A stretch of DNA of 64,000 bases from Raillietiella orientalis (GCA_036172245.1 JAYWIR010000008.1:2232001-2296000), one strand, 5' to 3'. Positions 5,500 to 60,304 are shown, counted from the first letter of the stretch. Notes: generated by a model from the letters alone, not told the origin. Made by a program: numbers and translations.

Positions 5500-5830
5500 G
5501 GACCCCGAAGAGGACCTCAGAGACTTGCCCGCCTTCCGCATCGAGTGGACCGCAGTGCCGCCTTCCGTCCAGCCACTTTTCCGCGAGGGCAACGGTGGAG
5601 GACGCACGTGCTCCCCACCGTTGCTCTCCACCGCTCCAGGGAAACCGCGGGTCCAGCTCGGGCCTCAGGCCTGCCCCGAGAAAGAGCGCCGGCTCTTCCT
5701 TCTCCTCCATCTCAGGTGGCAGCAAGGGAGACCCTCCACGGCGGCGCCTCGCACGTCCGGGAAGTGGCGCCACAAAGACCGTTCTTCTGTGTTCCAAGAC
5801 CCGCGTCCTCCTCCGAAGCAACGGAAACGA
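5500..5830 (-). mobile_element. C-terminal ORF2 remnant of a second LINE family; inverted paralog at ~7590-7920 (+), weaker copies near 10150-10390 and 27720-28140
   Basis: Shared frame RRRxRVLEH..EEPALFL..DPRFPW..ARASST.ALA..WLDGR..C. The 27.7 kb copy is preceded by SCGICGKLDTFTHLLLK. Confidence 0.5.
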
Positions 5831-7009
5831 TAGAAGAGGGAGAAAGGAAGGGTTGTTCGGGGTGTCCCTGGGAACCGGAGTCCGGCTTTCGGGAGTTGTC
5901 CGCCCCGCGCAGAGCCAGCCTCAGCCTCACCTACGCGCCGCGCTGGGACCTTCCGGTGCAGTAAGGGAGGAAGCGCCAAAGACACCGCAGCGCCAGTACC
6001 GTTTCTTTCCTCGCGAGGTGATGCCGCTCCCGATCCACGCCGCTACCGCCGCCGCCTCCTCCTCTGGGAGTATCCCTGCCACGTCCACGGGAGCCGGTCG
6101 GACGCACCCGAGCAAGCCGCTCCGCCCGGAGCACAGAGAGCAACAGATGTCGCGGGTGGTGGGGAACGCGCGCTCCCGCGGCTCGCCTGCCCACTCCGAC
6201 CAATCAGCGACCGGCCGACGAGAGACCGTCGGCAGGCGCCGCGGTGCCTGCGACCAGACTGCCGGAGGCAGAGCGCACATCGGGAGCGGCGCCACCTCGC
6301 CGACAGGTTCTCTTTGGCGGGAGGTCCGCCAGCCGACCTGGCTTGAGGAGGAGCGGGTGCGTGCTGGACAAGTGCCGCGGACCCTCCTTCCGGAGGAAAC
6401 GAATGGCATGATCGCGTTTCCTTTCCTCCTCCGCCTCCTTCCCCCTTCACGTGTCCCCATCCTCATCGAAGGCAGACGGCGTGGTACACCCTCCCGAAGG
6501 ATTGGCTGCAGGAAGGGGAGTCACGGAATCACCGCGCGGGTCGGCAAGGGGTTCCGATTGGGGAAGGGAACTGTCCCCATCCTTCTGTGAGCGAGTGTAC
6601 CCTCCCTCCCCTCCCATCCTATCTTCCCTCAGGTCGGGTGCGCCTCCATGGTTGTCCGAGGTGCCATTCTCTCCCCAGGATGACCGTTTCGCTCGAGGCG
6701 TGTGGGAAGCTCGAGAGGTGCAGTCCTCGGACCTCGGAGCCTCTAGGCGACGCACCCAGTTCCCAGCTCTTCTCTCAAGACCTCGGCTATTGGGAGGTAC
6801 GAAAACCATCCCTGAGCTCGAGGCAAAAGCAGGCAGTTGGCTCGAATGTGCTATCCCTTGGGATGGAGGGCAGCAGGGAAGAGCAGAGTCGAGAGGATAG
6901 TTCCCACTGGATTCTCTTGGCAGAGGCAGGACGTCAGGAGCTCACAGGAGGCGGCGCTGTGGTCGCTGCCCTTCAGGCCGATTCCCAGGGACACGCCCAC
7001 CATCCCTCC

Positions 7010-7569
7010 ACCTCTTAGTTGAATGCCCTGCCGTCCAGATTCTTTGGGATCGTCTTAAAGCGGCCCTCCGGATACCGGATGGTGGCAATGTTGGATGTGT
7101 CTTCAGTCTTGTCTTCGTGCGGGACGCCCTCAGTCCAGCCGCAGCACTGGCAGCACTTTGCTGCATTCGTGGTATCGTGGCGGCCTGGAGTGATGCCGAA
7201 GATGAAGGCTGCATCGTGAGGGACGTCATCGAGTATGCTTCTCGCTTCCTGCAGAGAGCTACCCGATGGCCCAATCTAGGAAAACTGAAAATGGAACTAG
7301 AAGGCATCCTGCAAAGGATGGGCGCTCCCAGCAGTCTTCTGTGATCCCTTCCCGGCCCTCCAAACTTTTTTTTGTATTTTGTTTTTCTCTTTTATTTTAT
7401 TTTTGTTTTCTCCCCCATCCCCCTCCACTGCCGAGGAGAGCCACACCGGGCTGCGTCCCGGTGTCCCGGCAGTTCCGGTATTGCGTGGCCGTCAGTGGGG
7501 CCTTGTACCACGTTCTGTATTGACCGTTGAAATGTTTTTAATAAACGTCCCGGCGTAACCGGGTGGCAT
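7010..7569 (+). mobile_element. 5'-truncated Tx1-like LINE 3' end (family T) with 16-bp TSD
   Basis: ORF2 C-terminus (RDALSPAAALAALCCIRGIVAAWSDAEDE...LEGILQRM), structured 3' UTR, AATAAA at 7540. TSD CGCCCAC(C/A)ATCCCTCC at 6994-7009 and 7570-7585. Confidence 0.8.
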
Positions 7570-10424
7570 CGCCCACAATCCCTCCCCCACCCTCCGATCG
7601 TTTGCGTTCCATTGTTCCGGAGGAGGATGCGGGTTTTAGAGCACGGAAGAGCCTTTTTCGTGCGCCAATCCCTGGGCGCGCGAGGCGCCGCCGCGGAGAC
7701 AGAGGAGGAGGAGGAAGAGCCGGCGCTCTTCCTGGTGGTGGGTCCGAACCCCGAGCAGGACCCGCGGTTTCCCTGGAATGGTGGAGAGCGGTGGTGGCTG
7801 GCACGCGCATCCTCCACAGCTGCCCTTGCGACCAGGTGGCTGGACGGGAGGTGGTACTGCCGTCCACCCGATGCGGACAGCGGCGAATGCCCGAGCACAG
7901 ATCTCTCCCGTAAACGGCTGGCCATCCTCTTCCCCGTCCTCCCTCCTCCCTCCTCTCCTCCTCGCGTTTTTTATCCCTTAGTGGGTCCCTCCTCCCCATT
8001 TCCCTCCGCGATCGTTTTCTCCGTCGTCACCATCACGAGCGTCAGCATCACCACTGTCGCCATCGGCTGCCCTCATCGGGTGGCGCATCGCTTTTCTCCC
8101 GAAGCGAACGAAGGCACCCGTTCAAGCAGAGGGCAGCCGGCAAGCGTTTCCAAAGAGACTGTGAAAGAAGGGATCGAGAGAAGAGGTGGGGATGGGAGCC
8201 CTTCCCGCCGTCCGTCAGGTAGAGCCGCCTTCGACCGTTCCCGGTCCCGGAAGAGTAGTCTCTCCCTCCCTCTTTAGCGGACCCTGATGGGTTGGTTGCC
8301 TTCCGCCTACTGGACCGCAGGGGCGGATTCTTGCGCGTGCATGCCGCAGGGGCGTCCAGAGAAGGAGAGAGGGAGAGAGGGAAAGCAGCAGCAGAACGGC
8401 AGCACCCCCTTCCTCTCATGCGGAGCCCTTTGAAAGACCCGCAATCTCTCTCAGGGCGCTGGATGCGCCACCCTTGAGGCGCCCGAGAAGCCCAGAAGAC
8501 GCTGCGGGGTTTCCGACGTCCTGCGGAAACCTCTCCAACCGGGCTGGAGGAACCTGCTGAAGACATGAGTACGGGGAGAAAACAGGGTATTGTGCTGACA
8601 GAAGGGAGGACAACCCCAGTGTTCGTAGCCATGGGACCCAACGATTCCCCCTTTTTGTTTTCCTCCCAGCCCCCCCGCTTCCTTTCTTTGTTGCTGTTGT
8701 TTGTTCGCGGGTCACCAACATGCTGAGGTCAGCCAAATGGATGCCCGACGGCTGGTCTCCGCTTCATCGTCCTCGCTTTGTCCTTCCGGAGAGGTTAGCA
8801 TCCGGTACGAAGAACCCTGCTCCTCTCCGAAAGGGAGCGCCTGAACAACACACCGGAACTAGAGAAGGGGGCCTCCCGCTGCCTCATCGCCCTCGTCTCA
8901 TGGCGTTGTCGAGGAGGCTGCTGGCGCGCAAGCAGCTAGAGACACCGCGGTCGTGAAGGGACGGGAGGAAGACTTCGATTAATTTTAACTTTATTTAACA
9001 CCAAGTCCTCTTCAACTCTGCCAAATATATTATTATTTATCTTCTTTAAAGCAGCATTCATGGCATCAATTTTTACAGTTTTAGCTTCTTCTTTTAAGAC
9101 TTCGAGTGCAGGGGTGAGTGCCTCCTGGAGCCGGTGACCTTTCTTCGACGAGGATGGTGTGGTCCAGCTAGCGGAAGCTCCAACCGTCACCTCCTCCTCA
9201 AGTCGCGCAACTACTTGCCCGCAGTGCTCCGTTTCGGAGTCTGAGACCCGGTGCCCTGGGGAAAGGGAGAGGACGGAAGATGGTCGCTGGAGACGAGATT
9301 TCCTGGAAAGGCCAGCTGCGACGAGGGCGGCGATATATAATGAATAGATAATGTATTTAAATATTTTTATGCTACATAATAATATTAAAATATGTAAATT
9401 TATACTAAATGTGCTCCTCGTCCCTAATTCTCCCTCCTCCTGAACGTATCGCTGGACTAATGTCACGACTCCCTCAGGGTCCGATCACCCCTCGCTAAAG
9501 ACGGGTCTTTCCACCGCTAGAGGGGAAGAAGAGGGGGAGAAGAGTGGGGCCGCCCACAAGTGCGACCACAGTGGCAGAGCTGCGATTGGAAACAGCAAAT
9601 CTCAGGTCAATCTCTTCTCCCTGACGGAAGCAGGGAGGGCGACAGCATTCTTCCTGAAATAAAGATCCCGATTTCCAACCTTTCTCCTCGCTTCCTTTTT
9701 TTTGTGTTTTTGTTTTTCCAATGCTCCTTCGCCCCTTCGAGAAGTTGGAGGCAGTGCAGCCCAATCCTGATAGACAAACTCTAGCTGCTTCCTCCTTCTT
9801 AATCTCCCTCTCTTCTCCCACCCCCATCTAGTCTACTCAGGAGGAAAGGGGGAGTCCTCTTGATAATCCACCCTAAGATCCAAGGGATTTCAGTGTGCGC
9901 GACTCCTGCGGGGTAGGAGACAGCCTCCAGGAACGCCTCCGGATGAGCTGGGGAGGGGAGGCGCAGCCTCAGCCTCCTTCCCTGCCCCCGTAGCTACCTT
10001 CCTCCTCTCCCGCCTACAAGTGAAGTGTGCTCCCACGCGTGCGCACCCTCCTGCCACGAGCAGAGCACGCACCCCCGAATGCAACGCGCTTCCCACGAGC
10101 AGCGGCGCTCCCGTTCTCTCGCGTCTCCTTGCTTCCTTTTCCCACAGGACCTGCATAGACTGGAGCACTCCAGATTACCTGGAGGAGGCGCGAGCCGTCG
10201 GTCCCGACCGTCCCTTGGATTTCCAGGGCATCCTTCTGCGTTTCGCCTCCGGAAGCAGTTGACCCCTCGCCTCACGGTGCGGTTTCCCTGGAAACGGAAG
10301 GGGGGAGGGAGAAGGAGGAATAATACCTTCCCGTCGTCTGAGACCGCATGGTTCCAAGAACCTCGGAGAATGCAAACCGCTGCGAGGAGCCCCTGAGAAG
10401 TAATGCTGCACGGCGTCCTAGTGC

Positions 10425-11100
10425 GGCCGCGTGGCTGCGGCTGTCCTCGCGCGTGGCACCGAGCATCGCGGGTTGGAATCCCACCCGGGGAAGGATCGAC
10501 TCCGAGAACAGGGAGTGCCCCGAGGGTCTCGAGTCTTCCCCCCCGCAGGATGACTCTGGTTGGCCACGGTCTCCGGTGGAAGCCGGAAACTCCCAGATGC
10601 TTCGTTGATTGGTCGGGACTGGAAGTTGACCCCCCGAGGTCCTCCGGTAAGCTAAGAGTCGGTTCCCTTTGGAGAGAGCCCTTCTTGTAAACAGGGAAGA
10701 GTCCCTTCAAGGTTTTCTTCAAAGGAGTAGCAAGGGGAGGTTCTTTTACGGGCTGCTCCCTCTAAAGAGGAAATGATGGGCAGCCCCCTCCAGGTCCCTC
10801 CGGAGAGAACAAGGAAGAGGTGGTTCCCCTTGGAGACTCCCTTCGGAGAAAACTAGGGCAAGGTTTCCCTTCGGGCTTCCCTCCCAAGCGTCAGAGGAAC
10901 GCCCTCCTCCATCCGGCGCCCTTCTTGGATGCATAGGATGGTCCCATCGGGGCTTTCCTCCCTAACTTGAAGAGTTGCCTGCCTCCTCGAGTGGCTTGGA
11001 CAGTGCTCAAGAGCTCCGTGAGTACTGGGAATTTTTTTCTGGTTCTCTCTGAGGGGGCGAACTGTTCTTCAGTACTCAGAGCAAAAAAAAAGAGAGAGAG
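10425..11100 (+). mobile_element. tRNA-derived SINE, copy S1 (uninterrupted)
   Basis: Head GGCCGCGTGGCTGCGG (A-box-like) and GGGTTGGAATCCC (B-box-like, ~10470). Body shared with other copies (GGATGGTCCCATCGGG..CCTAACTTGAAGAGTTG, GTTCTTCAGTACT). A/AG-rich tail. Confidence 0.75.
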
Positions 11101-16460: not shown

Positions 16461-17278
16461 CGGACATTGGTCCCTTGCGAACCTCCAGTTGCAAAGAGAG
16501 AGCTTCCCAGAATAGAATAAACAGGAGCGTTTTGAGGAGTTGGAGATGAGCTCAGCGCGCTGCTGAAGACTTTGGGAAGGACAGGGGTGCGAGGAAGGCA
16601 CGAAACCACTCCGGACTACACTGCACCATTCCGTTGGGAGTGGAGCTGAGCAACCAGGTTGACCCAACGCGCGCGGATGCGGGGGTGCATCCACTGACAT
16701 CTCGACCAGACTCGCGGCTCCTCTGCCGCCGAGAGTGGAATTTGATAGGGAGGAAGGAGATCCGTCGGTGGTCAAGGAAGATACCGGCTCGCGCCCATGC
16801 TTTCTAGCAGGAAGTTGAGGAACAGATCCGGGGAACAGTCGAGGAAGCCAGTATCCCTCCCGCTGATCGCACCGGGCACCCACGGCATCCGGCATTTCGA
16901 GCGCACGCGCTCAGATGCAGCTTCTCGCTGCTACTCTCTTCTGGGAAGGAAGCAGAAACGCAGATTGAATCCCTCAGGCTTTGGGAGGCAAAAGATGGCC
17001 TTGGAGATTCCGTGCCAATCGACCACGGACGCTTTGCTTTCGGGTCAGCCCGGGAGCCTCCGCTTCGATCACGGCAGCCGTCATGCCCTCTCATTTCCAG
17101 GAAACTCCAAGCTTTGTCCTTCGGAGAGCGCGCTGGCGCATCAGAGCGCCAAAAGGCACGGAGAAACCTCGTCAGACCACCGACCACCGAATCCACGCCG
17201 CGATGGAAGCGGCGACGTTGTCAGAGAAGGTGGTCCAGAACAACACTCTCGAAAAAGAACGAATTGGCCTGCGCTGCT

Positions 17279-18170
17279 GGCCGTGCAGCTGAGGTCTCCG
17301 CACGCGGGTGGTACCACGTGTCGCGGGTTCGGATTCCGTCCAGGGAAGGAAGGATCGACGGTCAGAACAAGGGGTGCGTCGTCTGCTTCGGCCCCCCTCC
17401 CCCGCAAGATGGCGGTGGTTGACCCACGCGCTTTGGTTGACACCCGGTCACGCCGGGACATTTATTTATAAAATAAACATACAGATCAGTGGCAGGAAGT
17501 TTGATCCCGCCAGAAGAAACCTGCCGAAATCTGACACGCAGGCCAGCAGGGTTCGTCTCGGTAGCACAGGGGAAGGAGAGACAAACAAAAAGAAAAAAAA
17601 AGGTCACGGACTTTGGTGAAATTCGGAAACCCCCGGATGCCCCCGTTGACTGGCCAGGATTGGAAGCTGCTTCTCCAGGGTCCTTCCTGGACATCAAGGA
17701 GCGCCGATTCCCTTCGAGATTTCCCTTCGGTTGTGAAAAGAGAGCCCTACCATCCAGCGGGTTGATGCCCTTTAGAGAAATTAGGAAGCGTCCCTTCGGA
17801 GCTCTCTTCAGGGGACCAACAGGGAGCGGATTCCTTTCGGGTTTCCCTCGAGAAGAAACGAGGAGCGACCCCCACAAAACGGGGGTCCCTCCAGAGAGAA
17901 TAAAGGAGAGATGATTCCCCTTGGGGGTTTCCTTCGGGTTTCCCTCCCCAGGTGTGAGAGGAATGGTCTCCTTTCCTTCCGGAGCCCTTCTTGGATTCAT
18001 AGGATGGTCCCATCGGGATTACCTCTCCCTAACTTGAAGAGTTGCATGCCCACTCAGGTGACGTGGGCAGTGCTGAAGAGCTCGTGCCCCTTCCCCCCAT
18101 CCTTTCCGAGGGGGCGACCGGTTCTTCAGCACTTGGCGAGGCAAAAAAACTGGAAAATAAAATAAAAAAA
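17279..18170 (+). mobile_element. tRNA-derived SINE, copy S2, interrupted by an antisense LINE 3' fragment at 17438-17604
   Basis: B-box-like GGGTTCGGATTCC at 17325. The body resumes at 17605 and ends GTTCTTCAGCACTT...AAAAAAA. Confidence 0.75.
17438..17604 (-). mobile_element. Family T LINE, 3' UTR-only fragment inserted in SINE S2
   Basis: T-rich tract, CTGCGT-loop hairpin, AATAAATGTCCCGGCGTGACCGGGTG end. TSD CACG(CG/GA)CTTTGGT at 17425-17437 and 17605-17617. Confidence 0.75.
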
Positions 18171-18479
18171 TCTGGAAGGAAAACAGTGAAAACAGAAGAA
18201 CCCATAGGGATTTCCATCCCCTTGGACCAAGAGCAGCGATTCCTAGTAAGGCCGCCATTGGCTTTTTTAGAAAAAGAAGAGGAAAAAAAGGGAAGAGTAA
18301 GGTTCCACCAGAAGCCACGAGAGGGTGCAACTCAAGGGGTAGTGAAGAGAGCTCTTCGATCACCCATCCTTCGTGTGCTGTGCCGCCACCACAGCAACCT
18401 CCACTCAAATTCCTTCCTTGGATTCCTGTGCGATTCCGCTGCTGCTTCAGGTGGCTTAGGAACGCTTCCGTTGTAACCC

Positions 18480-19190
18480 AGTCACACCTGCTTCCCAAAT
18501 CTCAGCGTGTTCTGAACTCCGGGCCCATCATTTTATCCTTGGGATCAAGGGGAAGAGGATGCTCCTGCGACGTGGGAGGCGACCTGCCTCATCTCCAGGG
18601 TCGCCGATGCTGCTGGCCAGTGGCAAATGTCGTCCAGCGAAAAGGACCACCCCAAAACTTCGAGTTTAGGGTCCTCCAAAAGATAGATGGGTTCTCTAGG
18701 GATTTCTGTGAAGAACTTGTGGATCCCTTGCTTCCTGCACGAGGCATCCGTCCTCCCTCTTCGGTGCCAAATTCCGACATCTTGCTGGTGCACTGGGAAC
18801 TTCCTCGAAGCGAGGAACGCCACCACGACTCAGTGGAGAGAGACTGCCTAGGGAATGTCCCCATTTCAGGACAGTGGAAAAACTCCCGCAGGTACTGCTG
18901 GAATGCGGGAAGCTGCGTCAAGGATCGCCGAAACACCAAGGTTCGACGGTGCCGCCCTGAAGACCTCTTCAGGGAGACCTCCATGTCTCCAGCTTGCCTG
19001 CTGCCTCCTCTCCCACGATTCCCTACCACGTACGGACAACAATAACTGCCAAAACGGAGGGAGGAGGAATTCGGCCTATATTCCGGCTAACCGTTGACAA
19101 TCACCATCGCTTCCTACATGAGAAGGGTGGAGAAATGACCCAATCCGAGAAGGTAGGTACGAGGAATCCGTGGAGTGTTTATGGGCAGGG
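18480..19190 (-). mobile_element. Old LINE RT-domain remnant
   Basis: AMVIVNG, a degenerate QG/SP region, VAFLASRKFPVH and KLEVLGWSF in RT subdomain order. Confidence 0.45.
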
Positions 19191-19759
19191 ATAGGGGAGG
19201 TGAGCTGCCGAACCTGTGGGCAGACTGACCCGACGCCGGTGAACGCACCTTTCACCCTCTTCCGTCCATCCCATGTCCTATGCAGACCCTCGGGAAGCAA
19301 GTGGAATACCGCGAAGCCCGCCCATCCCATTCCTTATTCATCTATATATTTATTCGTTCCCCTTCCTTCAATCCCTCCTTTTTTCCCTATTTATCTTCCC
19401 TGCAAGGTTGGTCCCTTCGGGTTCGGGCTGACACATGTTGACCTATCCCTGTCTACGACCGTAGAATTTAATTTCTTCATTTTAAATAAACGGTCCACCT
19501 ATCCGGAATGAGAATGACATGCTGGAACATTTATCGGAAACAATAAAGCAAAGAAAATAATATATTGTGGACCCAGTTCCCAAAGAAAAAAAAAACGAGG
19601 TCCGTGGGAGAAGTTCAGAGACACGCAGGTGGGTTGCTGCGGCGGCAGTCCGGGGCGGAAGGAAGCAAGACAATAAATAAATAAATAAGACGTAGGATGG
19701 GGACAGGCGTCTCTGGCAATGCCCTCTCTTCTCGCCGAAGACCGACGAGAAGAATGCCG

Positions 19760-21420
19760 TCTCGCCTTCGACTCACCCTCTTCTTCCAGGCGGGGCCACT
19801 ACGCAGCCGTCCTCACGTGGGCGGCAGCCTCCTTTCTCTGCACCCGAGACCCAAGCACGTGGCGGGCGGCGACGATGGCGCGGATGCAGCCCGGCGCTGC
19901 AAGCTCGGAGCCCGTCGGGACTCCACCTTTCGCACGGAGTATCCCCGCAGCAAGTCCTTGGCCGCGTTTTCCTGGTGCCGGAGCGCTGAAGACAGTCTTC
20001 GCCCAAATTCCTGGATGTGCCCTCAGTGTCCAGTAACACGGGCAGGAACGATTCCGCCGCCCCGCGCCTCAGAAAGATCGGGGACTCAACTCTCCCGGAG
20101 ACGAGGTGTCGGCACTGGACACACGAGAAACCCCAGTTCAGAAACAGCACTACCTCGTGCCTTGGCTTCAAAGGGAGCAGCGGAGGATTCCCACACAAGG
20201 AAGAGACCAGGGGTTTCTCCTAACAGATACCGGTCAAGCAAACCACCGGCTACGCGAGACTTTGTTCCTGGCGTGGCGGCGCAGACGCATCGTGTCCATA
20301 TGCGGACTGGAGCTCTGAAGAGCGACCAAGCTGACCAGGACCAACAACTGGATTTTCTGCCGGCCTGCGAACGATAGTGCCTGGTTGCAGGAAACCATTC
20401 TCACATGGGCCAAGAACAACGAAGCGATCTCGGAGATGCGGCAGCGGCTGCTCCACTCCTACAACAAACGCTCGCTGCAGGATGTCATCGTACAGCCCAA
20501 CACGTGTGCGTGAACAGAAAGGACCTCCTTAGCCGCGGCACTGGCCTCGCTCAGAGAACAACTGGCTAGTAACCAGCTGACCAAATGGGGAGGGAGGTCA
20601 GTTGCGAAATCATTCAGAAGACGAGGGAACTAGGTGGTTGGACCACGGGCCAGCTCACGGACGCTGCGACCCCAAGAACCCCACCGAAAGGATTATTGCT
20701 GCTGGGAGTTCCACAGTAAGACCTGCCGTGGTCCCCAGCGCTGAAGAACAATCGGGCCCTCCCCCTGAAGTGGCAGGAGTCGGCACTTCCGGTGTTGCTT
20801 TGGGCCTCCCGTGCAACGTCCGCCGCTCTCACTAAATATGGGGGACTGTGGACTCCAAGTGCTGCAGATGCGGGATACGAGAAGGCCTCCCTCACCTGCT
20901 TGTAGACTGTGTTGTCCTCCGGCCCCTGTGGTTGCGTTACGCAAAGGCCCTTGGTGCACCGACGGACAATGCCAGGGACGTGATGAAGTGCCTCTTCGTG
21001 CGCGATGCCCTTTCGTCCGGCGCATCCTCAGCAGCTCTTTGCTGCCTAAGTGGGATTGTGGCTGCCTGGAGCTACGCGAGAGGAGGACGGCACGATAGGG
21101 ACGTCATCTGCTTCCCCCTGCGCTTCCTGTAGACGGCAGCAAGATGGCTCCACCTGGGTCATACTCAGTGGTTTGCCACGGTATCCTAGAAAGGATACAG
21201 AGGACGTTCTCCAACACCCGGTGATTCCCTCCCAATTTTTTTGTGTATATTTTTTTGTTTTGTTTTTATTTTTGTTTTCCCACTTCCCCTTGGCTGACAA
21301 GGAGAACCTCGCCGGTCTGCGTGCGGGTTACTCGGCTGCAAGCATGTGGAGGGTCCATGGTCCTACACATGCTTGTTTATTATTTTTTATAATAAACGTC
21401 CCGGCGTGACCGAATGATAA
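19760..21420 (+). mobile_element. Family T LINE, degenerate thumb-to-3' end
   Basis: Collinear with 24897-26478 (WLQETILTWA vs WLQKTVRTWA; CCRCGIREGLPHLLVDCVVLRPLW). 3' end AATAAACGTCCCGGCGTGACCG. 5' boundary approximate. Confidence 0.75.
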
Positions 21421-21449
21421 ACCTAACATTCCCCCCACGGAAGGAGTCC

Positions 21450-23750
21450 CTTGGCCCGACAACGCAAAGTGGTAGCACCACCAGGATGGACCACTCTTCA
21501 CTTTGCCTTCCAGCCACCGATTTGTTTGGTCTCTTCTGCGACGATGCGGAGACTCCCTCCTCGTAGGTTGACAACTGTCATTATTTGCCCCTACTGTCAT
21601 TATTTGACGGCGTTGCGGCCAGGAGGACTATGTGCAGTCCTGCAGGACACTTCCCAGAGCAAAGTTTGGGAGATACCGCAGTTCCTCTGGACGCATTTCC
21701 AGGGTGATAACCCAGATCACATCTGCCTCTTACCGACACTCCTTTCACTTCATCAGGTGGCAGAAGATTCAACGGTGGACTTCCAGGAGCGAGACCGGTT
21801 GCCTCAGAGGGAAGCCAATTCCTAGCAACCTGCATCAGTAGCACTGCAGCCTTCGCTGCCGAAGTACCGAGGGGTGAAGCGCGCAGAAACACACCGCGGC
21901 GAGCTGCACAGTAGGACACAAAAGTGTCAGTTGTCGGAACGGCACCTGCAGTCCGATCTCTTCCAGAGTTCAAGATGACCAAACCAGCATCCCGACGCGG
22001 CGCTGCAGTCGTTGGATTCAAATCGATCGCTCCCCGCAAAGCAGGACTCACCCTTCAAGCGTCTTCCATCGTTCCCCGCGGTTCCCAGCGGGCTGGCGGC
22101 CAAGTTATTAGACTATTTGGACACTTAGAGGCTTCCGACCAGGAGGTTGTGAAACACTCCGTTCTAAGGACACATTTGCATACGTTTGTGTCCTCGTGGT
22201 GTTTGTGTTGATGTTCCTTCCGGTGTTGGGAAACCAATGAACCAATGGAAGCCAAGGGAACACGCGCACACATTTGAGACTGAGGGCCCAAGATCTCGTT
22301 GCAGAAGCCCCATGCTCGAAATATCTGTCTTTGAGATCCTGTTTTCGTGTCTCGAGCAATGTCTTCTGCAGAAGGTTGTTTTTCGAAGCACCTGAAACAA
22401 ACAATGGCGAGCAAAGATGCGTTTTCATTTCCTCGCTCGTCCCTGTTGGATCGTGCAGAGGTTGGCATCGTGAACAACAACTGGATGCAATCCTGTGCCT
22501 GCTCTCCCGTTTGCTGCTCCCGACAGCCCGCCTCCCTCATCCCTGCAGGCTTCGCTTTCGGCAGCAGCTCCTCCTGACTTTGCTGGTCGGCGACGTTCCC
22601 GCACCTCATGACGGTTTTTTTTTTATTTTCAACAGGCCTTCGGCGACGCTGTTTGCCATCATCAGTCTACTCCTTGATGACAGCTCCCCTTCTCATCATA
22701 AGCCTGGCTGTAATGAAGCAGGGAAGTTGCATCCAGACTGGAACTGGTTGTTATGGAATGACGCCATCTCCTTTCAACAACCATCTCACTTTCTCTTCTT
22801 CTGCCCTTTGGTTTGCCTGTGCACATTCAGTGACTGTTGAAAAGTCTAAGAGGAGCACTTCAGTTCCCTCCTAGCTGCACAGAAGTTCTTTTTTTGGTTC
22901 CTGGACTACTGCTTCCGTTTTGCCCCACCCTGGATTCCCACATAATGAAATGAAAAGAAGTTGTCCTGTATATCCAGTGGGTACACCCGGATTTTCACAG
23001 CACAGAGCCGATCGCCAATGGCACCGGCTTCCATGCTGCGAAGTTTGCGCTTATCTTTGACAGTGTGTGGTCGGTGATAATCCTCAGTGGCTGAAGAGCC
23101 GTCATTGTTGGATGTCTAGTAGTTTGGGAGCAGTAAAGGGATGGAATAGGCAGTGAATCGAAGAATTTCAAAGGAACATAGCATGCTTGAGGATGCAGTG
23201 CTCCAGGGATGTATCCTGGAAACGTCGGACGGCCTGTGATGGAATAGCTCGCAGCTGCGGGAAGGGCTGGAGGGAAGAGAAAGACGGAGAAGGTGGTAGA
23301 AACCTCCTCTTCGATGTGATCATCTCTTCAGGCTATTTGCCGGATATTCCGACTCACTGATATTCTCGGTCCATTTGCGGATCTGTTCTCTTGTGAGAGG
23401 AATCTTCCTTGGAATTTCTTGACTTTCTTGCTGAAGAGCATCCGGTGGAGGGCATTTCTACAGCACCTCAGCCACTTGGGCGCGTCAATCACTAGCTCTC
23501 AGAGACCCAAAGAAGCTGATGAGTCCTTCCGCCCTAACTCTCACATATCGATCCAGAGATAGATGTTTCGCACATCAAGTCCACAGCCGACCGATCCCCT
23601 TTCACACGCAAAAGTCTTCTGTCTTTCAGCCTTCGGATGGAAGACGCACGAGATTAGTGCTGATGGAATCTCCCGCCACCTTTTCAAAGTCATCCACCAT
23701 GCGCTCACCGACGATGTTGCAGTTAGCATGAAGCAGTACCGTACGAAAGC
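21450..23750 (-). mobile_element. Old LINE 5' remnant: ORF1 zinc knuckle followed by APE
   Basis: GYTGQLLFISLCGNPGW (~22975-22925, Tx1 ORF1 Y-GQ-CCHC-like), LLETRK, LRGAIDLN (for GGDxN), RCDLGY. Confidence 0.45.
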
Positions 23751-24244
23751 ATCACGTCAATTCGAGGGAGTCGGTGAAGCAAGGGAGTGAGAGGTGAGGA
23801 CACGTCGAGGAATTTGGCCAAAGTTCGCTTGGAATTTTCCTCAAAGACCAGAAAACAAGATGGCCGAAAATTTCAAGCAACCCAGCAGAATCAGAACATG
23901 AACAATAAACGAACAATTTTCGACAACACGACGACCAGCCAAAAGGTCAGTAAAGCAAAAGCACGTATGGAAAGACAATAATAAAGAATACATGAAAAGG
24001 CACGACACAGAGTGCACCGCAGCAAAGGGCACGTGGAACGAGCACGAAAGCACAAAGTGCACGACACCGAACGACCATTCCATTCTGATTCGAACTTCGT
24101 TTCAACCATAAAGCTGATGAGGACAGACTGACTTCGTGGGTTAAGCAAGAGTCAGTCCGCTATTTTTTCGGTCTTCTCTCCTTTCGCTATACTGAAGACG
24201 CAAATCCGTCATACTGTATAGTCTTCCTGTCCGTTAAAGTCGGC

Positions 24245-26678
24245 GTTAAGTACTGAAGAACCGTTCGCTTAGGGGCTCACGAAGATCTTTCACACTGTTC
24301 CACGCCACCCTGAGAGTACGTGCCAACTCTTCAAGTTAGGGGGCACCCTAGGAGTGGACCATCCTATGAATCCAGGAAGGCTTCATAGGAAGGAGTTTGC
24401 TCCTCTTACGATGGAGTGGGAGCACCGAAGGGAACCACCTGTTCCTTATTCTCCCCGGAGGGAACTGGAAAGGATCCGCTTCTGAATTTCTTCTCCTTCC
24501 TCCTCCCTCCTTCTTCCTCCTTATCCCTTCTTCTTCTTTCTTCACCTCTTACCTTCTTTTTCCTCCGTCTTCCTTCTTCTTCCTCCTACTCCCTCCTTCG
24601 GAATGAACACGCAAAGGAACTGCTCCTTGTTACTCTGAAGAAAACCTCGAAGGGACGCTTCCTAATTTCTCTGGAGGGTGTTCCCAGAAAAGAGCAGAGC
24701 GCCTCTGATTTTCTGGAGAGGCATCCCCTAGGGGGCATCAATCCACTCCATGGATAGGCTCTCTATTCACAAACGGAGGGGAATTCTGAAGGGAACTAGC
24801 TCCTTGATTTCTGGAAGAACCCTGGAGGGTCAACTTGTAATCCCGACCAGTCACCGGAAACATCCGGGAATTTCCGAATTCCACAGGTGCCGCACCTTCA
24901 GAAAGCACTGCAGGTGCTCATCCCGTTCCAAAGAGGGAGGTTTTACCTACCGGAACGGGCCGCGGTGTGGAACACCTTCGTGGCCTCCTTCCTCCATCCC
25001 CTGCTTTGTGTCTGTCCTCTGCCATGCAGTATTAGGAAGCGGACAAAGGGCCTCTCCCGGATCGCCCTCTAGGGAAAAGGGAGACTCCGGGTCTACCTAA
25101 AGGACTTGTGTGCTCCACTCGTGGACGGCAGCCCAGGACTCCGTCTGGCTCTGGAGCGAATGGAGCTGAAGCCCAGTTTCGAACACTCACCCTCGTGACA
25201 AACCTCTGGAGCACAACCTGGTGCCAGCCTGCACGTCTCCTCATCCAGCAATCCACCGGCAGCGGGAAACTCGCGTCTTTCCTTGTGCGCCGTCCGCGCA
25301 GTCTCATCCACTGCGGACTGCACCTATGGTAGGTGGCAGTTCTGGCCAAGAAGAAGGAATGGATTTCGTGCCGCCCCTTGAACGGTAGCTCCTGGTTGCA
25401 GAAAACCGTTCGCACGTGGGCTAGGATCCAGGAGCCAAGTGCGGATCCGGTGCGAAGGTTCCTGTACGCGCACAACAACTGCACGCCCCGGGAGATCCTG
25501 GAAAATCCCGTGAAGGGTGCGTAGGCGAGCAGAACCTCCCACGCTGCCGCGCTGCCCTCCCTTAGGGAGCACATGGGCAGCAGCCTCACGGCTAGATGGA
25601 AGGTTACTGTGGAAATCTCTGGAAGGGAGATAGGACTGGGCGGGTGGACGACGGGCCAGCTCGCTGATGCTGCGACTCGGAGTGCTCGACTTCGTAAACT
25701 TTTGCGCAGGGGCGTGCTACTAGGACTTCCGACGGAAGACTTGCAGTGGTCCCCGGTGCTCATTAACACCCACATCCTCCCCTTGAAGTGGCCGGAATCG
25801 ACATTGATGCCACTGCACTGGAGCCTCCCGTGCAACGCCCGCCAGCATCATTGGACACGGGGGGTGAGGGTGGACCCAAACTGTGCCAGGTGCAGGGAGC
25901 AGGAATCCCTCCCGCACCTCCTAGTGGACTGTGTTGTCCTCCGGCCCCTTTGGAGGCGCTTTGGAGCGACCCTTGGAAGCCCCGGAGGCAACACCAGAGA
26001 CGTGATGAGGTTCCTCTCTGTGCGAGACGTCCTGCAGTCAGCCACAGCCTTTGCAGCACTTTGCTACCTTCGTAGGATCATGGCGGCCAGGAGAGACGCC
26101 AACGGAAGAGCCAGCGACAGGGACGCCATCCACTTCGCTCCCCACGTTTTACGAATAGAGACCAGACGTTCCCACCTGGACGTCAATATCAAGCAAGACC
26201 TTGCCGGAATCCTCTGAAGGATGCAGAGAACCACCCCCAACAGGACATGATCCCATCTCGCACCACCACTCCCAGAATTGTTTTATTTTTGTTTTGTTCA
26301 TTTTTCTTTTTGTTTGACCTCTCCCCTCTGCTGTCGTGGTTGTCCTCACCAGTCTGCAAACCGGTAACACAGCAGTGTATCTACAGAAAGGACGTGGTTG
26401 GACCGCTGGTCCAACCACAAAAATTGTAAAGTGTTTATTTTATTTCAAATAAACGCACCGGCGAACCCGGGTGAAAAACCAGTGCCTCACCCGAATATAA
26501 GCCAATCAACGTCGTCCTGCGGGGAGGGGATCGAAAACCCACGACTCGACCATTTCTCGACCCGAAGCGCTTGACAGCAGGGACGCGTGACGCTTGACAG
26601 CGTGTCCGCCGATCCTCCACGTGGGGATTCGAACTCGAAACGCTTGGCACCACGCACGGTGACTGCGGCCACGCGGTC
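24245..26678 (-). mobile_element. tRNA-derived SINE, copy S3, interrupted by an antisense LINE fragment at 24897-26478
   Basis: Head on minus strand 26678-26480 with GAGTTCGAATCCC (26636-26624). Body continues 24896-24245 with the same conserved blocks and contains a TC-rich expansion at ~24485-24600. Confidence 0.75.
24897..26478 (+). mobile_element. Family T LINE, thumb/linker/CCHC/3' UTR, inserted in SINE S3
   Basis: RAAVWNTFVASFLHPLLCVCPLP...RVYLKDLCAPLVDG (L1/Tx1 post-RT motif), zf-RVT-type PNCARCREQESLPHLLVDCVVLRPLW, stops and frameshifts. ~13-bp TSD at 24884-24896 and 26479-26491. Confidence 0.82.
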
Positions 26679-27049
26679 GCCAATGCGGGCGTCGTTTCCA
26701 TCCGTTGCCCGTCAGTGGCTTTCTCTTCCATTCCTCCTCAGCGCTGCGTAGGACTGGAAGCGTCGTCCTGCTCAAATTCTAGTCGGTGGGTCAAGTAGAT
26801 GTCACGGATTCGCAAGGCCACCATGAGTTGCCTCATTCTCTCTCTGCATGCAGCCTGGGGACACCCCATCTTCTTGAGACCCCGTCATTCCGAAGGATGT
26901 CCAATTCCAAGGATCCCTCCGGGAGACTTGGCTGGCAGCAGCACCTTGAGGCTTATCCTCCTTTTGCTTCCTGTAAGTGTCAAATGCCTCTTCAGCGTTC
27001 CCAAACAGGAGGGCGGCACATGACAGCACCATCCTGCTGCCCTTCAGTC

Positions 27050-27540
27050 ACCGCCAGGTCCAGGAGTTCATGGGAACCTGCCAAGATGCCGGTGCTCAGA
27101 TCGGCTTGGTCCGCCTCATTAACAGAGGAGAAGGAAGGGGAAACAAAATAAAAATAAATAAACAAGCATGAAAAACTTGTTTGAGACAGATTTGGGAGGG
27201 ATCGCGGTTCCCGGAGGGGCGTCCTCTGAAGAAGAGTTCCATCCTTGTATCTCCCAGATGGAATCATCTTGTTGCGACCCTCAGCAAGAGTTTCGTTAAG
27301 AGGATGGCATCTCTGTCCTGGTCTTTTCTGGAGACGCCCATGAAATCCCCTATCTCTAGGGGATGGCAAACAACTGCTAAGTACGCGACTGGCGGCAGTG
27401 CACAGCACGCAGGAAGAGGCGTTTATCCATGTCCTTGAAGTTGCCCAGCGGGAACCAGAGGAGCATGGTCGGAGGGCAACACAGGCCACAAGCAGATGCC
27501 GAAGGGTTTCAGCTTTCCCCGGACCTGCCACAGTTTGATT
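27050..27540 (-). mobile_element. Family T LINE 3' fragment
   Basis: ETLRHLLVACVALRP, followed by the T-rich tract and a degenerate UTR hairpin. Confidence 0.65.
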
Positions 27541-28899
27541 TCACACTCCCCTGGGCCAATGATGCAGGAGCGCGTGGCAGATACCCGGTACCCGGTGCCC
27601 GAGCGAAGGACAGCCTCTCTGCTGGATGGAATACCTGCAGACTCCGCCGCCGGAGATCGTGACCGCCCTGGACTGCTCCGTGGCTCCCCCTCCTCAGGCG
27701 GCAGCACGAAGAGGCTTTACTGTTCGCGCGCAGGGGGCTTCTCGTGTAGCCAGCGTCGGCATCTCTGGACGAGGGGGAGCGCCTCTCCGAGCTGCGGCAT
27801 CTGCGGGAAACTGGACACTTTTACGCACCTGTTGCTCAAATGAGGTGACCTTCGGAGCGCGTGGAAACGCCTCGCGGCTGCTCTACTCCGTCCCGCAGGC
27901 GCTCCGGAAGAGCTGCTACGGCTCTGATTCACGCGGGATGGACTTTCGATTTCTTCCCCGGTCGCCCGATCCTGTGCTGCGCCAGGAGGACCATGGGGTC
28001 TCGGAACACCGAGGAAAGAGGGAGCGTCAGCAGAGAAGGAGGACCACACTCCCCGTCCTCGCAACAATGGAACATGAGGTCAGGTGGTTTGTGAAGGATG
28101 CCAGGGTGAAGGAGGGCACCACTCTAAAAGGAGGCTGGAACTGTGCGTAAGTAACGCGAGAAATGGAGCACCTTCTTGGAACTGTCCAGGTGCTCTACCC
28201 AGAGGAGCAGTCCTTTGAGTGGGGCACTCGGGTCGCAGCTTCCGAAGGTTCACGTGTTGACCACCCACCAAAAGGTTTCCCTTTTCCTGCAATGTTGCAC
28301 AGTGACGTCCCACATTGCCAGTGTGCCACCGGCGTGGAACGATGTAGGATCTGTTCCGTGTGTTAACAAACGGCTGCGCCATTTTGACTGTTCTCAGAAG
28401 GCACAACAATCAGCCAGCTAATTGGTTGTCTGGATCAAAGGTTGCACTGTTTCTGTGATTCTGTAATTTCAAATTCAACATCATAGCGGAGAACCTATGA
28501 TGAGTTCAGGGCTCCTCCTTACCTGCAACGATCCCGCCTCTTCCCCTCCTTTCAGAGATGAAAAGTTCATGTCTTCCGATGATTTTCCACAAGTCTGTGC
28601 ATTGGTCTTTCCCGGAAACCACGCCAACCCTGCAAACCAGAGTTCCTCTGGTTGGCAGTAATACAATGCAAGAAACTATACTGGGGATAGGAAACTGGAG
28701 AGGCAGAAATCCAGGATGTGAAGGACGGATCTCAGAGGAATCTCACACTCAATTTTCTTGTTACAGAAAAGTGGCTGGAAGATATGCAGACCAGCATCCC
28801 GGAGGACAGATGATCTCTTTCCCCTCTCTCCCTCCCATGGAGACAGCGGCCATACCCCAGCTCTGCTGGCACTCGTCTTGAGCTTTTCGAACCGTGTCG

Positions 28900-32050: not shown

Positions 32051-32086
32051 GGACGTCTTCCTCCCGAGAAGGGACCTCCCTCGACG

Positions 32087-32710
32087 ATGCTACCCGGATA
32101 CGCCGGGACGTTTATTTAAACTCTTCAAATAGTCATGACAATACGTGGTACAAGGCCCCACTAACGGCCAACATTTAACAGGACCTGCCGCTACGCCGGT
32201 ACGCAGACCAGTGTGACTCTCCTCGGCAGTGGAAGGGGATGGGAGAAAAAACAAAAAGAAAAATAAAACGAAAAATGGAATTTGGAGGGCGGGGAAGGGA
32301 TCACTGACCACTGGGAGGAGGGTCCATCCTTTGAAGGATGCCCTCGAGGTCCTTCTTCAGTCCAACCAGCTGGGGCCATCCGGTAGCTCTCTGCAGGAAG
32401 CGAACAGCATACGGGATGACGGCCCTCTCGTTAGCGTCTTCATCTTCGGCTTCACTCCAGGCCGCCACAATCCCACGGATGCAGAGAAGTGCTGCCAGGG
32501 CTGCGGCTGGCTGCAGGGCGTCCCACACGAAGAGAAGGCGGTAAACGTCTCTGAGGTTGCCGCCAACCGGTATCCCAAGGGTCGTTCGGAAACGCTCCCA
32601 CAAGGGCCGGAGGGCAGGACAGTCAACTATCAGGTGGGAAAGGGACTCCCGCTCCCCGCACCTGGCACACTCCGGGTTTACTCTCCCCCTCAACTCGCGC
32701 ACCAGGGTGG
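32087..32710 (-). mobile_element. 5'-truncated family T LINE 3' end, close relative of 7010-7569
   Basis: PECARCGERESLSHLIVDCPALRPLWERF...LEGILQRM. End AATAAACGTCCCGGCGTATCCGGGTAGCAT. ~9-bp TSD CC(C/T)TCGACG at 32078-32086 and 32711-32719. Confidence 0.8.
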
Positions 32711-45500: not shown

Positions 45501-48500
45501 ATGAAAATCAGGATCGCATTCTTTATCCACTATTTTTCAAGACTTATTTATTTTAGTTATTCTGAACATTCCTATTGCAGCTTTTTTGTGAAAATCTTTT
45601 GTTATACAGCCCATGTAACAAAATCCCACATATACATGCAATGATAAAACAGTTTAACAACTTGGATTTACAAGATGAAACTTCATTTCAAACCCCAAAG
45701 TGAAATCACTGGGATTCAAATCTTAGCATTCTATAAAACACTGCAATAGAAAAAGACTAACTTCATCTTTGTGGAAATCTTTAAGAGGTTCCACAATTCT
45801 TCCAGCATCCCTCAACTCTCTAATCATATCTGTATCATTATGATGAGTTTTGATGACATCAGCTTCAGTACTAGCATATGATGATCCAGACTCAATAAGA
45901 TCAGGTCTTAAAGTTCCTTGACACAAAAAAATTTCATTCTGATTTAATTTCATTTCAGAAATGAAATCAAATGCAATCTGAAAATAAATGCATCATATGA
46001 GAAGTAATGGATGGTTTGCAACAAAATCACTGCATACCTGTGGAAAGGTATTACCAATGATTTTCCTTTTATCTTCTGGATCTGTAACGTCACATAATGG
46101 GGCAGTCATTCGTTTACGAAAACGAGAGTCTTTTTCCATATTTATCCAAGTAGTGGCATTGAGAAAAATGTGTCCAGCCTTAATTACTATCGAACAAATG
46201 ATTCACTTATCGGAAATAAAACTTTATGATATAACAATTCATAAGCAGTACAATGTAGAATGGTGAATACAAATGAATAGCAATTGTAAAACTGCATGTA
46301 ATTTCATGTTTTTTAATGAACATTCAAAACACCCCTTAATACAAAACTAAAGACTGGAAATTATATCCAAAGAAACAAGTAACAGCTTCTAAAGAATCAA
46401 AAACTTTACACTTCCACGTATGTGCCATTGCTAAATTTCTAATGTATTTAGAAATCACAATGAAATCGGGAAAATTAATGAAAAACAAGTTCCATATTAA
46501 AATACTATAGATTGAGCAAAATATGTGTATTCTGAAAATTCGCTTAATTCACGTTTAAGTTGGAACTTGCATCATGTCATCTAGAACATTCTCAAATAAT
46601 TACGTTTTTGGTAACCTTTGTATTGAGCAAGACATTAGACTTAATCAATAGGCACAACGAATTATTGCAATCTGGTCAAACATAATTATGCTTTGAAAAT
46701 TCACCATTTCTTTTAAAAATTTTATATAATGTTGAAAACTCACTTTTGATATCAAGGTCTAATTCTTTCGTCATTTTCTCAATGTGTTTGGTTTCATGCT
46801 TTCTCATGAATCCATTATCAATATGTATCCCAATAATCTGATCACGAGGCAATGCTTTATGCAGCAAGACAGCACATACAGAAGAATCAACTCCTCCACT
46901 AAGAAGAATCTTCACAAAAGGAATAAATTCCAAATGAGAAAACCAATAGGAGGATTCAAAAAGCTGTAAAATCTATTTCTGTTATATCACTTAAACTGGG
47001 CAAAAGTTTACTCAATAGAATACAAGAGGATTTCTTACTAAGACTTTTTTATCTTTCACAACATCTTGGATGTACTGAATGCACTGAATCTCTCTGTTAG
47101 AAATGGTGTATGTTCCAACTAAACCAGCAATCCCATAAAGGAAATTTTTTAGAATAGTTTTTCCATTAATTGTGAGAGTAACCTAAAACAGTTCAAATAA
47201 ATAAAACAAGCAGAATTAGTAACTCACTACCTCTGGATGAAATTGCACGCCATACAATCTTAATTTATCATTAGATATTGCTGATACGTGTCCCATTTCA
47301 GATTTTGCAACCACCTTGAAGTTTTCAGCAACTCTTTCAATTCCATCTCCATGTGTGAGAAGTACAAGTTGTGTTTTATCCAATCCACTAAAATACGAAA
47401 ACATCAAACATCATTAAAAATGCTTTTCAAATAACTAAAATTCCCACAAGTACACTCCTAAAAGCATCTAATTTACATATAACACAACTGTTGTTCAACC
47501 TCAAATTATCTCAAACATACACCAAGGAATTTTCAACAGAGATATCAATCTTTTGACTTAATTAATTCAGAATAAAAAAAAAAAATGATATCTGTCTGGA
47601 ATCTGTAAAATGACAGTTGCATAGATTCATAAGCAGGAATCTGATTACTCAATACAGAAATATTACTGAAAAAACTGAATGCATTTAAGATCTGGGAAAC
47701 TTATAAGCAATTACTCATGTTTATAAATAATATTTTCATTATGATAAACATGAACATCAACATCGTATTCCTGTTTCTTCGGATTTTGAAAACATGCTTT
47801 CCATAAAGCATTTCTGACTGTCAATCAGCTGAGTCTTCATTTCCAGTTTAGGAGCAAGTTATTCTGGACAAGCTTTTAATGTTCACATATTCACATTTTA
47901 ATATTCACATATTCAAGGACTACACTGGATTGTTACAGACATCCAAAAGACATAAAACACATTAAAACAAAATAACTATGTTAGGAAACCTTAAAATACC
48001 AAATACTTTGGTGATCATAGCAATACGACCAGTATTACATTCACATATAATGTGCTAAACACATAATCAAGCACATAATCGACACAAATGATATAATGAT
48101 TTCTTAGAATCAGTCTATTCACTCCAAACATTTCTGATGCCAAAACTTCCTTCTGACCAAGAAAATAGAAAAAAAGAATATTGTTGAATTCTCCAGAAAG
48201 AAGCACAAAAATTAATGCCAATGCATAATGATGTAAAGGGCAGATGTAAAGGAAATTTCATATGTAAAGGGCAGTTTATCTTCTTTTTAAGTACACAGAA
48301 TAAAAAAGGTTATACATACGTGCATTAGAAAAGTATAACGGCATTTCACTATTTCTGGATTTCTGCCACCATAGAAAAGATATTATACTTGCTTATTTAA
48401 AAAATTAAATGCAACTGTTGAATCAGATCAGACCAAACTAACTTTTAAGTTAAAACTAACTTAAAAGTTGACTTGAAACTTAAGTTAACTTAAAACTAAC

Positions 48501-58791: not shown

Positions 58792-59420
58792 GACCCTGTG
58801 GCTGCTGCGGTCTCAGCGCGTGGCACCACCAGGCGCCGCGGGTTCGAATACTCCGAAATGAATCGACTCAGCGCGCCGTGAGTGCGAGTTTCTCCCGCAA
58901 GATGACTCTGGTTGGCCTCCACTCATCCGGGTGCGGCACTGGCAAACCGGATGCCCCGACAAGGGTCGGGACAATGGAAGTCGACCTTCCGGTCCTTCCA
59001 GGAATCAAGGAGCGGGGAGCTTCCCCTCCGGTTGTGCAAAAGAGTGGACCCTTCATTCCGGGGAAACCCTTTGTCGGAGAGGTGTGGAGTAGGTGTATCG
59101 CCACCTCTCCTGAGAGTGCTCAGAAAGGAGCCGATCCCTTCAGGGAGCGACCCTTCAAAGAAACTGGGAAGGGTTCCTTCAGGGTTCTCTCCGGAGGAGT
59201 AAACAGGAGCGGCTCCCTTGCTGGTTCCCTCCGAAGAACGAATTCCTACTAGCGGACCCTCTCCGGGTTCCCTTCGGAGAAGAAAAATGGAGTGGACACT
59301 TCCGGGATGTCCCTCCGGAGAGAACAAGGAGGGAGATTCCCTTCAGGGCTCCCCTTCGGAGACAACCAGGGTGGAGGCGATCTCCATGCTGGGGATCCGT
59401 CTCCAGGTGTGAGAGGAATG
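58792..59420 (+). mobile_element. tRNA-derived SINE, copy S4 (3' part truncated)
   Basis: GACCCTGTGGCTGCTGCGG, GGGTTCGAATACT (58840), CCCGCAAGATGACTCTGGTTGGCC shared with S1, then repeated CCCTTCGG units. Confidence 0.7.
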
Positions 59421-59479
59421 GACTCCGAGCTCTGTTGACCTAGGATGCTGGAAACTTTTCAGGGTTTTTGCAGCTTTCC

Positions 59480-60107: not shown

Positions 60108-60304
60108 ATCAACGAGGTAAGTATGTCCAGAAGCCTCCCCTTCTATAACCAGTGTTGTAACTGTGCACATGATCAATTAAAAGTTTCTAGATCTTTCTAG
60201 GTGCTCTTGGACTGGTCTAGAAGCTTTCCGTAGTGAAGGGAAACCAAGAAGCGTGAACTGAGTCTTTCTTCAGCTATTCCTTCCTTTAGCGAGACTGCTT
60301 AAGG

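Follow-up and report, generated by a model that had tools for sequence, protein, structure and literature searches.

How do two copies of one short interspersed nuclear element (SINE) come to be broken at the same nucleotide by identically oriented fragments of one family of long interspersed nuclear elements (LINEs)? The question is raised by a 64,000-nucleotide stretch of DNA from Raillietiella orientalis (GCA_036172245.1 JAYWIR010000008.1:2232001-2296000; hereafter the window, with positions counted from its first letter), in which LINE and SINE repeats are both very abundant according to profile, BLASTN and TBLASTN searches. A first-pass annotation of the region 17279-26678 had reported that fragments of a LINE family, called family T, lie in two SINE copies at the same nucleotide, antisense to the SINE, and had proposed that the SINE is a preferred target. 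Here we show that the site and orientation are indeed shared and that the two insertions are independent events, and we argue that the probable explanation is a sequence-dependent, non-exclusive preference of the LINE lineage for a motif of one SINE variant.

The SINE family was delineated with an nhmmer profile built from its copies in the window, which finds five copies (S1 to S5) of ~650-700 bp. Copy S2, on the plus strand, matches the profile at 17278-17443 and 17607-18091 and is split by LINE D (17438-17604, minus strand), which consists of the last ~164 nt of a LINE 3′ untranslated region (UTR; UTR profile E 3.2e-40). The 5′ part of S2 (17279-17437; profile 3-162, E 5.7e-37) is the SINE head with a B-box-like motif, whereas its 3′ part (17618-18149; profile 150-704, E 9.4e-137) begins with gaaattcggaaa and runs into an A-rich tail near 18143-18149. 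Copy S3, on the minus strand, matches at 26680-26478 and 24883-24266 and is split by LINE C (24897-26478, plus strand), a 5′-truncated element; its head occupies 26479-26680 (profile 2-166, E 1e-36) and its 3′ part, which in SINE sense starts with tggaattcggaaa, occupies 24248-24883 (profile 160-707, E 1.5e-160). Both LINEs are thus antisense to their host SINE. The inserts measure 164-167 bp in S2 and 1582 bp in S3, in agreement with the ~165 and ~1580 bp given earlier.

In a MAFFT alignment of the five SINE sequences, the breaks fall in columns 235 (S2) and 234 (S3), with ..GG(T) preceding and G(G)AA(A/T)TTCGGAAA following in both cases. The three remaining copies are continuous across this position, as expected from the earlier description of them as empty sites. 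S1 (profile match 10423-11026, or 10423-11091 with its A-rich tail, plus strand) reads ccggt/ggaagccggaaa with the slash at the position of the break, and S4 (profile match 60109-59548, or 59477-60109 with its A-rich tail, the 3′ limit being approximate; minus strand) reads ctggt/ggaagccgcata. S5 (58792-59426, plus strand) is likewise uninterrupted, with the GGAATTCGG block deleted and its 3′ end truncated against the tail of S4.

Each insert is bounded by a target-site duplication (TSD) of its own. In S2, cacgcgctttggt at 17425-17437 (plus strand) ends the SINE head and recurs with 11/13 identical positions as cacggactttggt at 17605-17617 (plus strand), directly before gaaattcggaaa, so that the same SINE columns occur twice. 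In S3, the duplication at the 5′ junction of the LINE, caggtgccgcacc (24884-24896, plus strand), and that at its 3′ junction, ccagtgcctcacc (26479-26491, plus strand), which ends the SINE head and adjoins the end of LINE C, are 10/13 identical, or 11/14 if one ambiguous A/T is counted. Read in SINE sense, the junctions of S3 run from ggtgaggcactgg (26491-26479) through the reverse complement of LINE C to ggtgcggcacctg (24896-24884) and tggaattcggaaa. The 3′ end of LINE C reads ...cccgggtg followed by aaaaa; LINE D ends on its own strand in ...AATAAATGTCCCGGCGTGACCGGGTG followed by TCA and carries three extra nucleotides (ggt/acc) at its 5′ junction. The 3′ end of the LINE (ACCGGGTG) resembles, by eye, the start of the SINE TSDs, a resemblance that is missing from copies A and E of the family and that might guide priming.

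These junctions define the same pre-insertion site in both cases, which in LINE sense is TTTCCGAATTYC/AC..., with the first-strand nick 2 nt after CCGAATT. Directly upstream of the nick in LINE sense stand TTTCCGAATTTC at S2 (17618-17629, minus strand) and TTTCCGAATTCC at S3 (24871-24882, plus strand), each an exact match to TTTCCGAATTYC.

The first-pass annotation had held that the two loci are not one duplicated composite, and several lines of evidence bear this out. For INDEPENDENCE of the S2 and S3 events, a BLAST comparison of the window with itself revealed no similarity between the loci beyond the SINE. The 5′ truncation points of the LINEs differ, and each LINE directly abuts its own TSD. 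These duplications represent different SINE variants, that of S2 resembling S1 (cacg..) and that of S3 resembling S4 and S5 (ggtg.ggcac..). Moreover, the 3′ UTRs of D and C, noted before as diverged, are only 55.2% identical over 172 aligned positions, the lowest value among 10 LINE pairs, whereas the SINE sequence around the inserts is 66% (148 positions), 77% (133 positions) or 68% (314 positions) identical between S2 and S3, depending on the part compared. A duplicated composite should have LINE parts at least as alike as its SINE parts; the opposite is observed. We conclude that the two insertions at the same SINE nucleotide, in the same orientation, are independent events.

What the two sites have in common is the 12-mer. 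Exact TTTCCGAATTYC occurs twice in the 64 kb, both times at an occupied site, while with up to two mismatches 28 matches are observed against 18.6 expected. The empty SINE copies deviate from it by at least two mismatches or a deletion, S1 and S4 carrying GGAAGCCGG in its place and S5 being deleted there. A shared secondary structure of single-stranded DNA at the two sites was not predicted (z = +1.89 for S2 and -0.86 for S3).

On this basis, the preferred reading would run as follows. In two separate target-primed reverse transcription events, 5′-truncated copies from two diverged subfamilies of one LINE lineage would have entered two already separate SINE copies. The SINE-sense strand would have been nicked between ..GGT and G(G)AA(A/T)TTCGGAAA, that is, at TTTCCGAATTYC/AC in LINE sense, and a second nick 13-14 nt away would have given rise to the TSDs. 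The shared site would result from a LINE protein that nicks DNA or binds its target in a sequence-dependent manner, the variant recognized being GGAATTCGG and not GGAAGCCGG. We infer that an endonuclease preference underlies the shared site; the enzyme is presumably of the apurinic/apyrimidinic endonuclease (APE) type, and the 12-mer would be the determinant of site choice. Since the majority of the family T copies in the window lie at other places, the pattern would be one of preference and not of strict specificity.

Several observations weigh against this reading. It is built on two cases, and the comparison of two occupied copies with the motif and three empty copies without it is not significant by itself. 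Three of the five exact CCGAATTYC 9-mers are unoccupied. When the 3′ flanks of nine family T copies (A, B, C, D, E, F, H, I and J) were scored against the SINE profile (nhmmer --max, E ≤ 100), only those of C and D matched, and A, B, E, F, H, I and J were without a match. This bears out the earlier caveat that other family T copies lie outside the SINE (7/9). Copy A (7010-7569, plus strand, 560 bp) has a clean 16-bp TSD, CGCCCAC(C/A)ATCCCTCC (6994-7009 and 7570-7585, 15/16 identical), in unrelated sequence that lacks the 12-mer. Furthermore, an endonuclease domain, the proposed actor, was not found in the 277 ORF translations scanned. Of the earlier claim that the SINE is a preferred target, the two independent hits at one site stand; a preference is not established by two cases and 2/9 flanks.

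Among the alternatives, coincidence fares best, although we regard it as unlikely: two unrelated insertions would have hit the same homologous position in a repeat-dense region with ~10 LINE and five SINE copies. Both repeats abound in the window, seven of the nine LINE 3′ flanks lie outside the SINE, and the probability that at least 2 of 10 LINE ends fall into a SINE by chance is 0.09-0.14. Agreement in position and orientation is another matter. An analytic estimate with 5-12 LINE ends, 48-64 kb, five SINE copies of 650 bp each and uniform placement yields 4.8e-5 to 5.6e-4 as the expected number of pairs that occupy different copies and agree both in position, to within ±1, and in orientation, and coincidence would also leave unexplained that the exact 12-mer stands beside the nick in both occupied copies and in no other SINE copy. 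This chance figure is, however, post hoc and carries no formal significance level, since the feature was picked from a very large scan of many windows, in which rare coincidences are expected somewhere.

A stricter version of targeting, in which the LINE lineage would have the SINE as its principal target in the genome, as R2 has ribosomal DNA (rDNA) and Tx1L has Tx1D, appears to us rather improbable. It would fit the use of an identical site by two diverged subfamilies. In addition, the flanks that lie in the SINE, 2/9 (22%) and all at one position, are nominally above the criterion given in the portion of Kojima 2015 (PMC4494074) used here, by which a family counts as target-specific when one kind of sequence accounts for >20% of its flanks, although the fraction comes from a single 64-kb window and from subfamilies only 55-80% identical. 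Against strict specialization stand the seven flanks outside the SINE, the unambiguous TSD of copy A elsewhere and the three SINE copies of the window that are empty.

A generic hotspot, created by a very short nick motif (e.g., YC/AC or CA/C), local DNA structure or chromatin, we consider improbable indeed. At the junctions with better support, those of A, C, D and, tentatively, E, a nick at CA/C or C/AC is indeed possible, but motifs this short recur many times within each SINE copy, which leaves the identical position unexplained; no shared secondary structure is predicted, and S1 and S4 retain GGT/GGAA, yet are empty. Finally, a single ancestral SINE-LINE composite that was duplicated (segmentally, as an inverted copy or by retrotransposition) and then diverged is very unlikely because of the missing outside homology, the differing truncations, the separate TSDs and the lower likeness of the LINE parts, even though S2 and S3 are separated by only ~7 kb, face in opposite directions and share the GGAATTCGG variant, and their SINE identity peaks just 3′ of the site, at 77% over 133 positions.

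The insertions of family T were collected with an nhmmer profile of the last ~330 nt of the element, extended by BLASTN and TBLASTN searches with the longest fragment. The UTR profile gives 10 matches with E<0.01 and one at 0.019 in the window. In addition to A, C and D, the family comprises B (20234-21421, plus strand) and E (32092-32689, minus strand), both outside the SINE, E being the closest relative of A with a UTR 80% identical; the family T-like copies F (60595-62033, plus strand) and H (62755-63386, minus strand), also outside the SINE; I (62315-62349, plus strand), a short piece; J (about 18567-19515, plus strand); and G (27078-27579, minus strand, with an adjacent inverted piece at 27734-28030, plus strand). 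A candidate extent of 1355 bp for LINE E was rejected because tblastn found no LINE homology upstream of 32684. For B, E, F and H, the TSD searches yielded only candidates of weak or ambiguous quality.

Every family T copy in the window is 5′-truncated, and the copies share a 3′ architecture consisting of a T-rich UTR, AATAAA, a CCGG-N5-CCGG hairpin, (G)TG and a variable tail of 3-6 nt, with no long poly(A). The hairpin is invariant among the copies (four pairs, no covariation). As the identity of the UTRs is only 55-80%, the copies represent old, diverged subfamilies. The sequence that follows ...CCGGRTG is subfamily-specific, with GCATCG in A and E (7566-7571 and 32084-32089) and ATAA(A/G)CCTA in B and F (21418-21426 and 62031-62039); the true LINE 3′ terminus may therefore lie a few nucleotides past the hairpin and differ by subfamily.

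Two arrangements within the family were observed in passing. Two LINE-T-like 3′ ends meet tail to tail at 19484-19560, where J ends in ...AATAAACGGTCCACCTATCCGGAATG at about 19515 and is faced by a decayed minus-strand end (..GATAAATGTTCCAGCATG..) from ~19520-19560, whose UTR match (19814-19518) is the weak one with E 0.019. The two G fragments lie head to head, ~150 bp apart, and represent the same part of the element, both spanning ~924-1479 of copy C, with the minus-strand fragment lacking the last ~95 nt.

LINE C, in addition to the 3′ elements listed above and its A5 tail, retains a decayed C-terminal part of open reading frame 2 (ORF2; 25333-26217, plus strand), which comprises 294 codons with one in-frame stop at 25522-25524. 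Related frames occur in copies A, B and E. A CX2CX7HX4C zinc knuckle is present in B, C and E, while A starts just after the knuckle. A C-terminal CCHC knuckle behind the reverse transcriptase (RT) is common to the Tx1 and L1 clades and is therefore not diagnostic.

Pfam was searched with 277 ORF translations (14 + 37 + 149 + 77); of the ORFs of ≥80 aa, those at 51.5-57.6 kb and 58.7-60.2 kb, several frames at ~21.0-24.8 kb, and frames over SINEs or LINE C lay outside these scans. Among the 277 translations there was neither an RT domain (RVT_1) nor an APE-type endonuclease domain (Exo_endo_phos), and the N-terminal part of ORF2, where the latter would lie, is absent from the window. The first-pass designation of family T as Tx1-like is therefore a putative one. 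Matches of family T frames to zf-RVT scored 22.8 bits (LINE C, E 1.5e-4) and 19.1 bits, both below the cut-off of 27.5, and a match to Pdase_C33_assoc (E 8.5e-4, below the cut-off) was taken as spurious.

Relatives of the C-terminal protein sequence are similarly sparse. A word-index search for longer protein relatives returned none. Exhaustive phmmer comparison with 1.84 billion representatives gave seven weak matches with E≤1e-3, the longest 375 aa and none with E≤1e-10; an 87-aa fragment, which comes from a single 2870-bp JGI contig, ranks first. The PDB gave no match at E≤10. Neighbors in the Atlas belong to unnamed or zf-RVT clusters, with zf-RVT in 25-64% of the members. The pattern of the LINE 3′ end was found in one stretch of metagenome contigs, a bacterial-looking coding region without a LINE-like UTR that we judged a chance match; in two stretches of genome contigs, both from Morganella psychrotolerans and taken as chance from their record titles; and in no stretch of viral contigs. 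A protein-alignment scan of the viral contigs gave 24 pattern matches, none of which was confirmed.

The host element behaves like a poly(A)-tailed SINE of ~650-700 bp, because its five dispersed copies have a common 5′ start (profile position 2-4), their upstream flanks are unrelated, and A-rich tails, somewhat past the profile end, are present in S1, S2 and S4. Pairwise identity among the copies is 55-69% overall, and the scanned ORFs that overlap them had no Pfam matches. Beyond their A-rich tails, S2 and S4 have ~25 nt more in common (CTGGAAGGAAA...), so the true 3′ end of the SINE may lie past the first A run. S3 alone has an internal expansion of ~120 bp of purine-rich (GAA/GGA) low-complexity sequence at 24480-24600, which the other copies lack. 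S5 and S4 stand tail to tail at 58792-60109, S5 being truncated at its 3′ end against sequence just past the A-rich tail of S4.

The designation of the element as a tRNA-SINE could not be confirmed. ARAGORN found no tRNA in the window, and Rfam gave no match at gathering score, nor any tRNA at E≤10 over S4 and S5. B-box-like GGTTCGAATCC motifs are nevertheless visible by eye in the SINE heads, whose origin may lie in a decayed tRNA. The head has two such motifs, GGTTCGAATCC and GGGTTTCGAGTCC, ~75 nt apart (profile ~50-62 and ~125-140; e.g., 59960-60060, minus strand), a pairing that hints at a dimeric tRNA-related origin. The LINE insertion site lies roughly 25-30 nt past the second B-box-like unit.

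Nested insertions of LINEs and SINEs are familiar from L1 and Alu, both of which insert into A-rich parts of Alu, the SINE matching the nick site of the LINE endonuclease. The preference in that system is for the degenerate motif TTTT/AA, which is found everywhere, whereas the family T site is flanked by a specific 12-mer, and family T has no poly(A) tail.

Closer parallels are provided by the Tx1 clade. The assertion in the first-pass annotation that LINEs of this clade are often target-specific, including for other transposons, agrees with what the portion of Kojima 2015 (PMC4494074) used here reports: target preference is found in many Tx1-clade LINEs, with Tx1 inserting into the DNA transposon Tx1D, Keno into U2 genes, and Kibi and Koshi into microsatellites. 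According to the same portion, crocodilian Tx1 families prefer Mariner-N4_AMi, certain long terminal repeat (LTR) retrotransposons or Harbinger elements. Tx1-Mar families insert at ~position 240 of Mariner-N4_AMi in opposite orientation, so that they resemble family T in using a fixed region of another interspersed repeat, antisense to it, and, if the preference of family T is real, in targeting that is not absolute. SINEU-3 copies are co-targeted to the Mariner site with TSDs of 16 bp, compared with 13-16 bp in family T. The two systems differ in their targets, which in the crocodilian families, as described there, are DNA transposons (Mariner, Harbinger), LTR retrotransposons and microsatellites, whereas family T is found in a SINE. 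They differ also in the evidence, since the crocodilian elements were assigned to the clade by RT phylogeny and analyzed genome-wide, while family T yielded no RT among the ORFs scanned and is represented by two cases.

Xenopus Tx1L (Christensen et al. 2000, as cited in the portion of PMC4494074 used here) likewise has its site inside another mobile element. In that case, the site, in the piggyBac-type element Tx1D, is chosen strictly by the endonuclease of the LINE, as tested in vitro, whereas the preference proposed for family T is not strict. Keno, Kibi, Koshi and Utopia integrate sequence-specifically into a multicopy sequence, as is proposed for family T, but, as far as the portions of PMC4494074 and PMC4640811 used here describe them, their targets are U2 small nuclear RNA (snRNA) genes or microsatellites, and Utopia employs a restriction-like endonuclease. 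No report of a LINE with a SINE as its specific target turned up in literature searches, whose scope did not include the supplementary target lists of PMC4494074, which might include SINEs.

The surroundings of the two loci are eukaryotic in look. The GC content of the window is strongly bimodal, with repeat-dense stretches at 52-66% and an AT-rich block at 30-36% (~38-52 kb). The repeats are CpG-rich. The AT-rich block contains at least one exon of a GMP-synthase-like gene; an exon-like ORF at 46676-46972 (minus strand) carries the SGGVDS... signature of the ATP-pyrophosphatase domain of GMP synthase. A pair of inverted repeats of ~298 bp, 75% identical (5529-5826, plus strand, and 7607-7883, minus strand), brackets the region of LINE copy A, which may be nested in another mobile element with terminal inverted repeats.

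We also entertain, as a tentative and rather doubtful extension, that a stem-loop-tailed LINE lineage with UTRs 55-60% identical keeps an endonuclease specificity for one bond beside TTTCCGAATTYC and uses a SINE subfamily as a safe harbour. If this were true, a LINE would parasitize an abundant poly(A)-tailed SINE that is itself mobilized by a different LINE.

Targeting of other mobile elements by LINEs at a fixed position and in a fixed orientation is already documented for the Tx1 clade, and the gain would therefore be incremental, except if the specificity turned out to be exceptionally strict or to have persisted through deep LINE divergence. If the preference of family T is true, the family joins a known kind, namely, LINEs that prefer a site in another repeat. 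If it is confirmed genome-wide, a SINE would join the known targets of site-preferring LINEs, which comprise rDNA, snRNA and tRNA genes, microsatellites and telomeres as well as DNA transposons and LTR elements. The site would, moreover, be a compact, defined target on which to study DNA recognition by the endonuclease or DNA-binding module of a LINE, a kind of module that attracts interest for the engineering of site-specific insertion.

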